Shown one piece after another: positions 26,453 through 29,458 of a stretch of DNA of 40,103 nt (its first letter is position 1; each line of letters opens with the position of its first letter). The translations under genes were made by a program, and so were the position numbers. The DNA is from a virus. Under the pieces are notes generated by a model, which searched no databases, was not told the origin of the DNA, and saw only the letters and a list, made by a program, of their open reading frames with translations. The stretch lies in IMG/VR virus record IMGVR_UViG_3300029610_000017, positions 1-40,103 of that record; one strand, given 5' to 3'.

Positions 26453-26920
26453 TCATATGATCGTTATAAAGATTTCTTTCTGCATCTCGAAAGAACCAAG
26501 TGCCTGCCTGAAAAACCCGATGTCGATGTGTGTGAAATCGTATATCAGTATGCCGATGATCGCGGCAACCAACGCAAACAAAAGAAAGCCGAGAAAGATT
26601 ATCCAAAGGTTTTTGTCTCTTAAAGAGCGGAGATAGATCTCGGATATCCGTTTCTCCGTTCCATAGTCTCGGACATACTTAATGACAGTCGCGGTTCCGG
26701 TTGTAGGCTCAATCTGCTTTTGCTCGATTCCCGCAAGCTCGTCGAGAGAGCCACCAAGAACTTTTACCACACTGGAGACGGTGTAAAACGCCGCTCCCTC
26801 GGCATGACCGGAGAACAGCCGCGCAACCGTGCCGGGAGCGATGCCGCTCAGCTCTGCAATCTGCTGATTGGTCAGGGCTTTTTCCTTTTTCAGCTCGTTC
26901 AGATACTCTGAAATCGTCAT
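26453..26920 (-). CDS. XRE-family HTH protein with a C-terminal transmembrane anchor
   Basis: N-terminal LTNQQIAELSGIAPGTVARLFSG HTH. TM segment LWIIFLGFLLFALVAAIIGILIY. No S24 peptidase domain. Confidence 0.7.
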   Translation of the reverse strand: MTISEYLNELKKEKALTNQQIAELSGIAPGTVARLFSGHAEGAAFYTVSSVVKVLGGSLDELAGIEQKQIEPTTGTATVIKYVRDYGTEKRISEIYLRSLRDKNLWIIFLGFLLFALVAAIIGILIYDFTHIDIGFFRQALGSFEMQKEIFITII

Positions 26921-27539: not shown

Positions 27540-27938
27540 TTATACGAAATAAGGGTTGGGCTTGAAAAGTATCGCGAAAAAGTCAATTACAACCCCGACA
27601 AATCCAATTCCGCACGTGAATAGATAAACAATGCCCAGCAGAATCTTGCCCTCGTAGAATTTATGCGCGCCCAAAAAGCCCAAAAACACGCACAACAGCA
27701 GGGCAACCCATTTGTTTTTCATATTTCCATACGGGAAATAATCAGCATTATCGTTGATGTTTGTATTGTTGACAATAACAGCCGGCTGCGGTTGGTTTTG
27801 ATGAAAATTCTCTTGTGTAGCCGGAACGATATCTTCTTTAGAAAGTACCTTCGCTTTTTCCGATTCAAATTCCTGTACAGTAAGCACGCCCTCGTTGAGT
27901 AAATCTTTCAGCTTTGTAAGTTCATCGTATTTTGACAT
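27540..27938 (-). CDS. SHOCT-domain plus TM2-domain membrane protein
   Basis: SHOCT-like LTKLKDLLNEGVLTVQEFESEKAKVL. TM2-like NKWVALLLCVFLGFLGAHKFYEGK...GIVYLFTCGIG. The ATG at 27938 has the better ribosome-binding site; the track start is 27965. Confidence 0.65.
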   Translation of the reverse strand: MSKYDELTKLKDLLNEGVLTVQEFESEKAKVLSKEDIVPATQENFHQNQPQPAVIVNNTNINDNADYFPYGNMKNKWVALLLCVFLGFLGAHKFYEGKILLGIVYLFTCGIGFVGVVIDFFAILFKPNPYFV

Positions 27939-27986
27939 TTTCTCATTCCTTTCTTTGCTTGCCATTATTATTCCGGCATAAATCCC

Positions 27987-28319
27987 TTAGTGCTCGGTAT
28001 CGAGCAGTTTATTTATAGCCTTAACCTTATCCAAGGGAGAGGCGACTATTTTTTTTATTAAAGCGGCAACAGCAGGATCAAGCTTTGATAAATCGAGGGT
28101 GTCGGGGGTACGGGAAGGTTCATCGGTTTCGTCTCTCAGGTACTCAGGCGTGGTATCAAGTAGTACCGCGATCTTGAAAAGGATATCGTCTGGGATATTC
28201 AAGTTAAGTCTTTTGCAGTCCTTCAAGTATCCTCGCGACTTTCCGCTTAATATACTGAGGTCTGATTGAGATATACGTTTCTTCTCTCTCAACATATCTA
28301 TTTTGCTATAATTGACCAT
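27987..28319 (-). CDS. XRE-family HTH regulator (candidate repressor)
   Basis: GGGGGCGG ribosome-binding site before the ATG at 28319. HTH is ISQSDLSILSGKSRGYLKDCKR. Confidence 0.65.
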   Translation of the reverse strand: MVNYSKIDMLREKKRISQSDLSILSGKSRGYLKDCKRLNLNIPDDILFKIAVLLDTTPEYLRDETDEPSRTPDTLDLSKLDPAVAALIKKIVASPLDKVKAINKLLDTEH

Positions 28320-28376
28320 AAAACCGCCCCCGGATTTGTGCAAACTCTAAAATCGCTCAAAATGGGCGAAAAACTA

Positions 28377-28405
28377 TTGACTTCGCCCGTTTTGGGTGAT
28401 ATAAT
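28377..28405 (+). promoter_or_regulatory. Strong rightward promoter
   Basis: TTGACT-17 nt-(TGa)TATAAT. Confidence 0.7.
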
Positions 28406-28495
28406 GTAATTACGGTAACAGAAATGATTGCCACAGACAAAGAACCTCCCGAGACAAAAGCGCCGGAAAGTGATTAAATTGTACCTCGCAATTAC

Positions 28496-28524
28496 AGTAT
28501 ATCATTTAACGGCGCGATTGTCAA
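28496..28524 (-). promoter_or_regulatory. Leftward promoter for the XRE / SHOCT-TM2 operon
   Basis: On the minus strand, TTGACA-17 nt-TATACT. Confidence 0.7.
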
Positions 28525-28570
28525 GGGAAATTCTGAAAAACTAACCGCAAAGAAAGAAAAGGCAGGCAAA

Positions 28571-28602
28571 ACAAAAAACCAATGGATGCGCGTATCCATT
28601 GG
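28571..28602 (-). terminator. Rho-independent terminator of the candidate ncRNA
   Basis: On the minus strand, CCAATGGAT-ACGCGC-ATCCATTGG followed by TTTTTTGT. Confidence 0.75.
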
Positions 28603-28927
28603 CTGATTGTCCAAATTTGTTTACCCTCGACATCGTGCAGGCTTTCGCCGCACAAAACGCGCTCTGCGCTTCTTTGAGATGTTTTGTCACTTTCGCAGTT
28701 TTGGTTCTGCAAATGCCTGATTGCTGACGCTTTGTCAGGAGTGCTTATTTCGGTGGGCATACTGGGATGCGCTTACACTCCCGTGTAAGGAACTCCGCCG
28801 AAACAGCCGCTGCATTTAACCGGTTTAATGTGCTTTGGCACCACAATTGCGACCCGTCAATAAGGGAGCAGGCAAATTCAAAAGCTTGGCTAACATAACC
28901 GCGCTCCTTTCTTTGCCAAGACGGCAC
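28571..28927 (-). ncRNA. Candidate structured non-coding RNA of about 350 nt, family unknown
   Basis: Bounded by its own promoter and terminator. Contains several perfect hairpins with GNRA or A-rich loops on the minus strand only. No convincing ORF. Confidence 0.5.
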
Positions 28928-28933
28928 GCCGTC

Positions 28934-28962
28934 AGTATACCGCTGATCGGCGTGTTTGTCAA
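28934..28962 (-). promoter_or_regulatory. Promoter of the candidate ncRNA
   Basis: On the minus strand, TTGACA-17 nt-TATACT. These are the same hexamers as at 28496..28524. Confidence 0.7.
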
Positions 28963-28985
28963 GAAAAATTCTTAAAAATTAATAT
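28956..28985 (+). promoter_or_regulatory. Early-operon promoter candidate, back-to-back with the ncRNA promoter
   Basis: TTGTCA-18 nt-TAATAT. Its -35 overlaps the minus-strand -35 (TTTGTCAAG). Confidence 0.4.
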
Positions 28986-29003
28986 ATTAAAAAGGAGGAC
29001 AAA

Positions 29004-29213
29004 ATGAACCTTGACCTTAAGACCCGGATAGTTCGGCTTCATATAAAGCAGAACGACATCGCAAAGATGTTGAGCGGCAACGGCTTTCCGGTACATCCCG
29101 CAGAGCTGAGCGACGCGATTCACGCAAAGAACAGCTACCCGAAAACCCTTAAGATTCAGAACGATCTTAAGAACCTTCTGACCAAGCTCGAACATGAAAG
29201 GGGACTTGACTGA
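29004..29213 (+). CDS. Cro-like small DNA-binding protein (putative)
   Basis: AAGGAGG ribosome-binding site. First gene of the early operon. Possible HTH at KQNDIAKMLSGNGFPVHPAELSDAIH. Confidence 0.35.
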   Translation: MNLDLKTRIVRLHIKQNDIAKMLSGNGFPVHPAELSDAIHAKNSYPKTLKIQNDLKNLLTKLEHERGLD

Positions 29214-29458
29214 TGCCCCGCGCAGCCATTACCGAAACCGAAAAACGGTGCGCTTCGGTCGTGCGGCATATCGACGCATACAAAGCAGAAAGATACCGGA
29301 AGGGAGACGACAAGGACACCGTCGCAAAGAAACTCGGTCTGTCCTACGGTCGCCTGAAAAGCATTCTCAGGACATCCCCGGAAAGCGTCACCCTCTCGGA
29401 GCTTTCTGCCATCGCAAACGCGATGAACATCTCAATCTCAACTCTCATAGGAGGCTGA
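29213..29458 (+). CDS. HTH-domain protein
   Basis: The C-terminal TLSELSAIANAMNISISTLIGG is XRE-helix-like. Confidence 0.45.
   Translation: MPRAAITETEKRCASVVRHIDAYKAERYRKGDDKDTVAKKLGLSYGRLKSILRTSPESVTLSELSAIANAMNISISTLIGG

Follow-up and report, generated by a model that had tools for sequence, protein, structure and literature searches.

The window analysed here is the whole stretch of 40,103 nucleotides (nt) of IMG/VR virus record IMGVR_UViG_3300029610_000017, and its subject is a short region on the minus strand (28571-28927) that lies between a repressor gene and the first early genes. This region is annotated here as a FuFi-1 RNA gene, and as neither a protein gene nor a new RNA class. 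It is almost certainly the gene for a structured RNA of approximately 355 nt that belongs to the FuFi-1 family (RF02986). An initial annotation, made from the sequence alone, had described it as a stand-alone, structured, non-coding minus-strand RNA with its own promoter and terminator, and the FuFi-1 match, the covarying fold and the lack of a conserved open reading frame (ORF) all agree with that description.

A FuFi-1 core within a longer transcription unit

The whole window was scanned against Rfam 15. The FuFi-1 core, 167 nt at the 3' end of the RNA (28573..28739, minus strand), matches RF02986 over model positions 1-175 of 175 with 107.7 bits (E = 1.2e-22; covariance-model gathering score, 59.6 bits), and FuFi-1 is the sole Rfam family that exceeds its gathering score anywhere in the window. 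The invariant blocks GCAGAACcAAAACuGC, AAGUG, GAAA, CUGCA and GGGUAAAcAAAUUUgG are all present in the cmscan alignment of the window and are invariant or nearly so across 27 representative homologues. The Rho-independent terminator that ends FuFi-1 RNAs is found here as an 11-base-pair (bp) stem followed by a U-tract (28605..28571), and the expected occurrence in Firmicutes or Fusobacteria is reflected in homologues from IMG/VR viral contigs and Clostridia genomes. FuFi-1 also scores above its gathering score at 22 other tested loci. The 3' half of the RNA is typical of an orphan family already described, hence no new RNA class, and the earlier suggestion of a new ornate phage RNA gives way to this full-length match. 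The Rfam scan had been recommended in the initial annotation, with ROOL, GOLLD and raiA among the families to be considered; none of these three, nor RNase P, tmRNA, SRP or 6S, matched positions 28300-29100 at E values up to 10, and no family at all matched 28740..28927 at that level. ARAGORN reported 0 genes in the window, neither tRNA nor tmRNA; the initial failure to recognise RNase P, tmRNA, SRP or 6S motifs was well founded.

FuFi-1 was described by Weinberg et al. in 2017 (PMC5737381), and that paper assigns it no function. According to the paper, it is one of four highly conserved, terminator-ended motifs that were termed improbable riboswitches, experiments gave no self-cleavage, and no specific gene association was reported, the motif occurring only rarely in 5' untranslated regions. 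The authors regarded the motif as suited to a 'sophisticated biochemical function'. A literature search on FuFi-1, RF02986 and its sister motifs turned up nothing beyond this discovery paper.

The RNA is preceded by a near-consensus putative promoter, P_RNA (TTGACA-17 nt-TATACT, 28962..28934, minus strand; 11 of 12 matches in a consensus scan), with an A/T-rich stretch upstream. From the position of its -10 hexamer, transcription is predicted to start at 28927 (±1 nt). It would end at the intrinsic terminator (28605..28571, minus strand, from the consensus scan), with its 11-bp stem (28604..28577), a 6-nt loop and a U-tract, UUUUUUGUUUUG lying directly 3' of the stem; the 9-bp stem reported initially is included in this longer one. 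Promoter and terminator enclose approximately 355 nt on the minus strand. Read on the plus strand, the terminator region has no terminator-like look.

Relatives of the RNA were gathered from approximately 110 loci; the sources of homologues were 79 + 24 viral contigs of IMG/VR and, for Clostridia, 11 genomes. Scans with patterns of the FuFi-1 core yielded the 79 viral contigs and the 11 Clostridia genomes (including Lachnospiraceae, Eubacterium, Acetatifactor, Acutalibacteraceae and Agathobacter), and a hidden Markov model of the whole unit recovered full-length copies in approximately 106 loci, which represent 72 distinct sequences. A set of 50,697 cultured-phage records searched by blastn with the locus and with the core of one homologue gave no match, and no isolated phage with the RNA was identified.

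These relatives place the ends of the unit well beyond the Rfam model. A sigma-70-type promoter lies 196-242 nt 5' of the core motif in most of the loci found by pattern scans, and in 31 of 36 representatives its -10 hexamer ends at a constant distance from the RNA. Between the window and loci that are approximately 68% identical, the similarity detected by blastn and nhmmer starts at ~28925-28929, i.e., at the predicted transcription start. Homology continues for ~190 nt 5' of the Rfam model, RF02986 modelling only the 3' half. A scan with the invariant 5' block alone found 71 viral loci, and the 3' domain is present in each of them save deletion or insertion variants and contig ends. Judged from these boundaries, the natural transcript is predicted to be approximately 355 nt long, about twice the length of the RF02986 model.

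A conserved fold with little sign of coding

The structure was derived from an alignment (A2) of 27 representatives, each less than 93% identical to the others, in which RNAalifold and a search for pairing columns identified 12 helices. In the resulting structure of 75 pairs, 94.3% of alignment cells are paired, as against 38-43% when the partners are slid. Changes on both sides occur in 56 of the 75 pairs, and 0 of 500 shuffles reach any of these measures; covariation among homologues had been named as a check at the outset, and compensatory changes are present in the majority of the fold. The core helices (F-P1, the GCAG hairpin, F-P2, F-P2a, F-P2b and the terminator) are 91-100% paired, with compensatory pairs numbering 6/7, 2/5, 5/5, 7/7, 3/3 and 11/11, respectively. 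Beyond the Rfam model, RNAalifold and pair counts delimit a further structured domain towards the 5' end (28736..28856, minus strand). It consists of helix P2 (28856..28853 with 28739..28736; 3/4 pairs compensatory), hairpin P3 (28845..28829; 3/4), helix P4 (28807..28796 with 28755..28743; 9/11) and a variable hairpin proposed by RNAalifold (28789..28772), all on the minus strand.

Two pseudoknots tie the 3' half together. In the first (28611..28704, minus strand), the hairpin loop CCAAA (28704..28700) pairs with UUUGG (28615..28611) in 97.8% of cells; the loop belongs to the GCAG-AACCAAAA-CUGC hairpin, and its partner lies in the strand AUUUGG. A C-G pair is replaced by U-A in 9 of the 27 sequences, and locus L109 carries two compensating changes. 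The second is a kissing loop (28588..28662, minus strand) between an internal hairpin loop, GCGCGU (28662..28657), and the terminator loop, (U)ACGCGC (28594..28588), which is 98.9% paired with 5 of 7 pairs compensatory. For both pseudoknots, this covariation fits pairing within one molecule and pairing between copies, and cannot separate the two.

Wobble pairs identify the strand on which this structure forms. G·U or U·G combinations occupy 180 cells of the alignment and A·C or C·A combinations 24; therefore, function resides on the minus strand. The energy of single-sequence folding (z = -1.9 sense, -1.6 antisense) does not discriminate by itself.

The extreme 5' end admits two predicted structures that are mutually exclusive. 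One is a 5'-terminal hairpin, GCC-GUCUU-GGC (28915..28925, minus strand); a hairpin lies within a few nt of the inferred 5' end in 36/36 representatives, its stem differing by lineage (UGCC/GGCA, GCCC/GGGC), as judged by eye only. The other is SL1 (28871..28917, minus strand), a three-tier hairpin that appears when the window and nearly all representatives are folded to minimum energy, and whose tiers are GGCAAA/UUUGCC, AGGAGC (28908..28903)/GCUUUU and GGUUA/UAGCC, with AUG at the apex. A covariance model dedicated to SL1 pairs 86.7% of cells versus 30-56% in slid registers, which makes the pairing register-specific; its covariation is not significant because the columns hardly vary, and a compensatory change is seen at one pair of the outer stem. 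A long-range helix offered by RNAalifold, UUGCCU (28875..28870) with GGGUAA (28626..28621), has two invariant strands and was dropped as less likely, because the sole informative change (in L064) is compensated within SL1 instead. The Shine-Dalgarno-like bases near the 5' end showed, by eye, no consistent pattern of pairing with CUCCCUU.

Six local hairpins had been listed in the initial annotation, and all six are present in the sequence exactly as given. As elements of the conserved fold they fared unequally. The hairpin UUGCAG/CUGCGA survives as GCAG-AACCAAAA-CUGC, GGC-GAAA-GCC is retained with 3 bp only, and the hairpin at 28772..28789 also stands, while the rest are shifted or not conserved. 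At 28830..28841 there is indeed a hairpin, but its conserved register is displaced (UGUG/CACA at 28845..28829). The bases of GCGC-AGA-GCGC instead form the loop that pairs with the terminator loop, and those of CUGAC..GUCAG are split between two other helices, neither hairpin being conserved. The suggested long-range pairings 28854/28920 and 28885/28915 clash with the 5' hairpin common to the homologues.

Between promoter and terminator the only ORFs are one of 60 amino acids (aa) that starts with GTG (28745..28927, minus strand) and a short one with an ATG behind AAAGGAG. The longer of them was raised initially as a possible small-protein gene in disguise, and it is open in the window. Its first codon coincides with the predicted transcription start, which leaves it no ribosome-binding site; in aligned homologues the frame is interrupted by several stops or frame-breaking indels, it has no Pfam match, and covarying helices run over the region. 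A protein gene at this position can be discarded for practical purposes.

The shorter frame, hereafter the mini-ORF (28825..28896, minus strand; 23 codons plus stop, MLAKLLNLPAPLLTGRNCGAKAH), begins with ATG, follows an AAAGGAG motif at 28910..28904 and overlaps a nearly invariant block of 30 nt (28861..28890). Comparison of homologues places the motif and the mini-ORF in a segment of ~60 nt with almost no variation, between the 5'-terminal hairpin and the P2-P4 domain of ~120 nt. In nearly all of the 72 distinct homologues, AGGAG or GGAGG stands 7-11 nt before ATG, GTG or TTG. Three lineages have TTA at the usual start, and each of these has an ATG one codon upstream; the exceptions are CTG in one homologue and a frameshift in another. 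These signals could mean that the RNA has a dual function, in which the mini-ORF is translated and either a hydrophobic peptide of 12-36 aa (M-T-K-L-L-x-L-P-A/V-P-L...) is the active product or the loading of ribosomes at the 5' end serves to stabilise or remodel the RNA. The loci L046, L080 and L084 alter nucleotides yet preserve the reading frame, and in Firmicutes 5'-proximal ribosome-binding sites and 5' hairpins are known to stabilise RNAs. Several features point the other way. The position of the stop is not conserved (12-36 codons), the entropy of the three codon positions (0.40, 0.47 and 0.48) reveals no 3-nt periodicity, four-fold degenerate sites (CTT, CCT, GCT, CCC) are invariant where second positions vary, and both the Shine-Dalgarno-like bases and the NUG fall inside SL1 in the predicted fold of nearly every homologue. 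Neither ORF, then, combines an open frame with third-position variation, and the periodic conservation that would have betrayed a coding sequence is seen in neither the 60-aa nor the 23-codon frame. Judging by these substitution patterns, constraint at the RNA level appears to dominate the mini-ORF segment; translation or ribosome binding there is possible. We regard a dual function as rather unlikely, and it would be compatible with either of the two roles weighed below.

In sum with the published family, the window shares the FuFi-1 helices, the invariant GCAGAACCAAAACUGC and GGGUAAACAAAUUUGG, the 3' intrinsic terminator and the occurrence in Firmicutes, and it adds to the model ~190 nt on the 5' side that are conserved and partly covarying (the 5' hairpin, the Shine-Dalgarno/mini-ORF block and P2-P4). 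The RNA is modular, since natural variants exist that lack the middle domain or consist of the core only. Copies without the middle domain are approximately 296 nt long. Core-only FuFi-1 RNAs, without the Shine-Dalgarno/mini-ORF block and without P2-P4, occur in L026 (3473-3650, plus strand) and L065, both with a promoter 46 nt 5' of the GCAGAAC motif; the L026 copy, the only one of the two scanned, scores 118.5 bits against the FuFi-1 model.

Other variants differ in surroundings or completeness. Copies of ~450 nt that keep the Shine-Dalgarno/mini-ORF block are found in chromosomal-looking surroundings in L084 (3575-4025, minus strand; 137.6 bits) and L080 (321-772, plus strand; 136 bits). 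The former lies in the order truA-like, MBOAT/DltB-like, DltD-like, RNA, rplM, rpsI, and the latter has a gene of phospholipase-D (PLD) type encoding 544 aa downstream. Neither locus has a cI-like neighbour or a convergent promoter. In L084, an ORF of 211 aa follows rpsI ~1.36 kb downstream of the RNA, which may resemble toxins of the ToxN/AbiQ type. In L091 (4577-4700, plus strand, aligned with window positions 28572-28933), the first ~100 nt of the RNA are joined straight to the terminator; the sequence is 84-98% identical to the window on either side of the region, and the body of the RNA is missing. This junction within the RNA gene arose naturally, by deletion or recombination, and beyond it lies a different immunity module. 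A viral contig with FuFi-1, L093, also carries a skipping-rope RNA (RF02924; 4906-4989, minus strand; 48.9 bits, gathering score 36.7), so that two of the four terminator-ended orphan motifs of the 2017 paper occur in one phage.

The RNA gene between the repressor and the early genes

The initial annotation saw the RNA as standing in the place of a cI gene. This does not hold, for a cI-like helix-turn-helix (HTH) repressor gene lies 229 nt downstream of the RNA on the same strand (27987..28343, minus strand; 118 aa, likely ATG at 28319; matches to HTH_3 and HTH_26) with a putative promoter of its own, and most homologues are arranged likewise. This promoter (TTGACA-17 nt-TGnTATACT, 28524..28496, minus strand; 11 of 12 matches plus the TG) begins 47 nt past the RNA terminator. 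A direct repeat of 50 nt (28495-28544 and 28933-28982, 78% identical) spans the cI promoter and P_RNA together with their A/T-rich upstream parts. P_RNA thus appears to be a paralogue of the cI promoter, and the RNA cassette to be flanked by a duplicated promoter module. In several other lineages, phage-specific direct or inverted repeats are likewise common to both flanks of the RNA gene. The 78% identity of the two promoters and the flanking repeats suggest common regulation.

The association with a repressor extends across the family. A same-strand ORF of at least 90 aa begins within 650 nt downstream in 59 of the 72 homologue sequences, and the 43 distinct downstream proteins that were scanned matched HTH_3 (26), Phage_CI_repr (8) and Peptidase_S24 (6). 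In most loci, the distance from the RNA to a cI-like gene downstream on its own strand is 100-500 nt. The RNA of L071 is 98% identical to that of the window, and its repressor just 30% identical; the two are therefore inherited separately. No protein family besides HTH regulators co-occurs consistently among the neighbours of the homologues.

This arrangement raises the question of whether the RNA serves the cI-like gene as a cis-regulatory leader or attenuator, with P_RNA transcripts reading through a regulated terminator in a riboswitch-like manner. The regular presence of the gene downstream and the engagement of the terminator loop in a tertiary contact are what such a leader would be expected to display. 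The kissing loop, for its part, does not compete with the terminator hairpin, because the loop contact needs that hairpin to be formed. The terminator is strong, with a long U-tract, the chromosomal copies have unrelated genes downstream, and FuFi-1 lies only rarely in 5' untranslated regions according to PMC5737381. A leader role is improbable above all because a separate strong promoter intervenes between the terminator and cI, here as well as in several lineages.

On the opposite strand, a promoter resembling PR (TTGACT-17 nt-TGnTATAAT, 28377..28405, plus strand) is divergent from the cI-like gene, 58 nt from its likely start; it faces the cI promoter and is convergent with the RNA. An operator-looking inverted repeat, I1, with 19-nt arms that are 84% complementary (28352..28400), lies over the -35 hexamer of this PR-like promoter. 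Another inverted repeat, of 18 nt and 89% complementary, joins the -10/start regions of the PR-like and cI promoters (28397-28414 and 28487-28504, 72 nt apart). The initial annotation had noted that the RNA is antisense to any transcript from the plus-strand promoter at 28377, and the same convergent arrangement recurs among the relatives. In 24 of 34 representative loci, an equivalent opposite-strand promoter is found 25-285 nt beyond the 3' end of the RNA and aimed into the RNA gene. Nineteen of these promoters match at least 11 of the 12 hexamer positions and 8 match all of them, where shuffled sequences lead one to expect 0.4 and 0.02 loci, respectively. The convergent promoter is always ~60-100 nt upstream of the cI-like gene and divergent from it, and therefore holds the position of PR. 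Approximately 10 lineages have a small gene, convergent with the RNA, that separates the PR-like promoter from the RNA terminator, and 7 of the 9 tested have matches to Cro/C1-type HTH families. The published description (PMC5737381) gives no specific gene association; in the loci studied here, FuFi-1 regularly has a cI-like gene beside it and a strong promoter pointing towards it.

On the other side of the RNA gene, the first two early genes (29004..29458, plus strand) encode a protein of 69 aa of unknown family and an 81-aa Cro/C1-type HTH protein; Gp157 and a Rad52-like gene come next on the plus strand. In most homologue lineages, the stretch from P_RNA to the first gene beyond it contains no recognisable promoter. 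A weak plus-strand sequence at 28956..28985 (9 of 12 matches), whose -35 overlaps that of P_RNA and which the initial annotation took for the early-gene promoter, is not conserved in homologues and was rejected as such. On the far side of the cI-like gene, between it and an integrase gene that is also on the minus strand, this strand carries a TM2/SHOCT-domain membrane protein (27540..27965) and another HTH protein, of 155 aa (26453..26920), which look like cargo of the lysogeny module.

Possible roles of the RNA in lysogeny

We infer from this map that the RNA gene is an independent unit read in the lysogenic direction, situated between the cI/PR-like region and the early genes and on the strand opposite to the latter. 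Given its position, transcripts from the PR-like promoter at 28377 would need to cross the RNA gene in antisense to reach 29004 and beyond. The simplest reading is that the early operon is read from the PR-like promoter through the FuFi-1 gene, because the convergent promoter is conserved, an early promoter cannot be recognised in most lineages and no plus-strand terminator intervenes (a scan of the window found no terminator-like site on the plus strand between 28405 and 29004).

This geometry invites the proposal that FuFi-1 is a lysogeny-side brake on the early lytic transcript, which would act through convergent transcription and antisense pairing. The RNA would be made in lysogens together with the repressor. 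Firing of the near-consensus P_RNA would then collide with, and occlude, polymerases coming from the PR-like promoter, and the abundant RNA would pair with an early leader that is perfectly complementary to it over ~355 nt. The compact fold, the 5' hairpin and the ribosome-binding-like 5' end may keep the RNA stable or recruit a partner. The proposal takes as its starting point the family membership, extent, fold, strand, absent coding signature, neighbours and promoter geometry computed above, and it supposes that the promoters fire as predicted, that the RNA accumulates with cI in lysogens and that lytic transcripts do cross the RNA gene. It is the best explanation that we can offer as a whole, with a probability of roughly 40%; the specific mechanism of collision plus antisense pairing is tentative and a little less probable than that.

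Known systems offer partial precedents. Lambda OOP and P22 sar are phage-specific RNAs of ~70 nt with simple hairpins, and they overlap either a coding region or a ribosome-binding site. The window RNA resembles them in having a putative promoter and intrinsic terminator of its own and in lying, fully complementary, against the predicted rightward early transcript near the immunity region. It is unlike them in its length of ~355 nt, in its conserved tertiary fold, in being common to phages with unrelated repressors and in overlapping only the leader. The predicted signals fit the OOP/sar type of geometry (own promoter and terminator opposite the lytic transcript) here and in 24 of 34 lineages, and the convergent promoter is lacking in 10 lineages and in the 2 chromosomal copies. 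Coliphages 186 and P2 have lytic and lysogenic promoters that stand face to face and are subject to transcriptional interference. Likewise, the cI and PR-like promoters of the window face each other, with starts ~75 nt apart and -10 regions that form an inverted repeat; unlike 186 and P2, the window has, further along the lytic transcript, a second promoter in the lysogenic direction and the gene of a structured RNA. A third parallel is the prgQ/prgX region of Enterococcus plasmid pCF10, where Qs RNA and Anti-Q arise from convergent promoters. The similarity lies in a terminated RNA of ~380 nt, a short hydrophobic 5' ORF, the convergent promoter pair and an adjacent HTH regulator. The window differs from pCF10 in that it has no regulator of the peptide-receptor (RRNPP) type, its peptide is much shorter and has no coding signature, and the body of its RNA has a conserved tertiary fold. 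With ROOL, GOLLD, raiA, skipping-rope and drum, finally, the RNA has in common that all are function-orphan structured RNAs often found in prophages; the window matches none of their covariance models, and the RNA is smaller and differently built.

Several observations weigh against the brake. All promoters, the transcription start and the terminator of the locus are predictions, and 10 of the 34 lineages are without a recognisable convergent promoter. The antisense duplex would stop 77 nt short of the start codon of the first early gene and so would leave a ribosome-binding site unmasked. The RNA body is missing from L091, and the RNA is therefore accessory and dispensable for carrying the genome. 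Simple antisense action or interference requires neither a conserved tertiary fold nor ~68% conservation across phages with unrelated repressors. The copies in L080 and L084 are located among housekeeping genes, with no cI and no convergent promoter, which points to a function in trans, and a core-only variant exists (L026). The main weakness of the brake model is that it leaves the conserved tertiary fold, the copies with housekeeping neighbours and the core-only variant unexplained.

These same features are accounted for if FuFi-1 is purely a trans-acting structured RNA whose partner is a protein of host or phage, a small ligand or another copy of itself, with the switch region serving as a cargo slot and the convergence being incidental. 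The highly conserved tertiary architecture, with its invariant unpaired nucleotides and two pseudoknots, its conservation across phages with different repressors, the chromosomal copies without a phage switch and the core-only variant are all in keeping with such a role, as is the sophisticated function that the original authors judged fitting (PMC5737381). How the RNA is placed and oriented with respect to cI and the convergent promoter, however, is far more regular than expected of random cargo, and HTH regulators apart, it has no protein family as a consistent companion. We rank a structure-based function in trans almost equal to the brake, and the two could coexist.

A more specific action in trans had been suggested by analogy to the immunity RNAs of P4 (CI type) and P1 (c4 type), which would pair with short sites elsewhere in the phage. 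The position in an immunity region and the conserved single-stranded segments are consistent with this analogy, but the reverse complements of the three most conserved segments are unmatched elsewhere in the 40-kb window at up to 3 mismatches, and we consider such pairing very improbable.

What is new here is thus not the class, which is known; the natural transcript of the family and its genomic setting appear, from the comparisons made here, to go beyond what the database entry shows. Since 2017 FuFi-1 has remained an orphan, and its conservation and complexity suggest a demanding biochemical role. If the natural RNA is approximately twice as long as the Rfam model, experiments with the core only may therefore have missed an activity. 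Its regular placement between the cI/PR region and the early genes, if true, provides phenotypes that can be scored (lysogenisation, spontaneous induction, immunity and early-gene expression), and the deletion, core-only and chromosomal variants are natural controls. The most far-reaching possibility is that FuFi-1 constitutes a third, RNA component of the lysis-lysogeny switch in a large group of phages of gut Clostridia: a two-domain RNA of ~355 nt, locked to its own terminator by the kissing loop, co-regulated with cI and placed head-on to the early lytic promoter, whose fold would act beyond antisense pairing. We would like to emphasize that this is speculative and, although a shade more probable than the dual function considered above, doubtful. 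Should it be true, the fold might act by binding a factor of host or phage, by sensing ribosomes that load at the mini-ORF or by self-assembly, and these phages would possess an RNA-based lock on lysogeny or superinfection.

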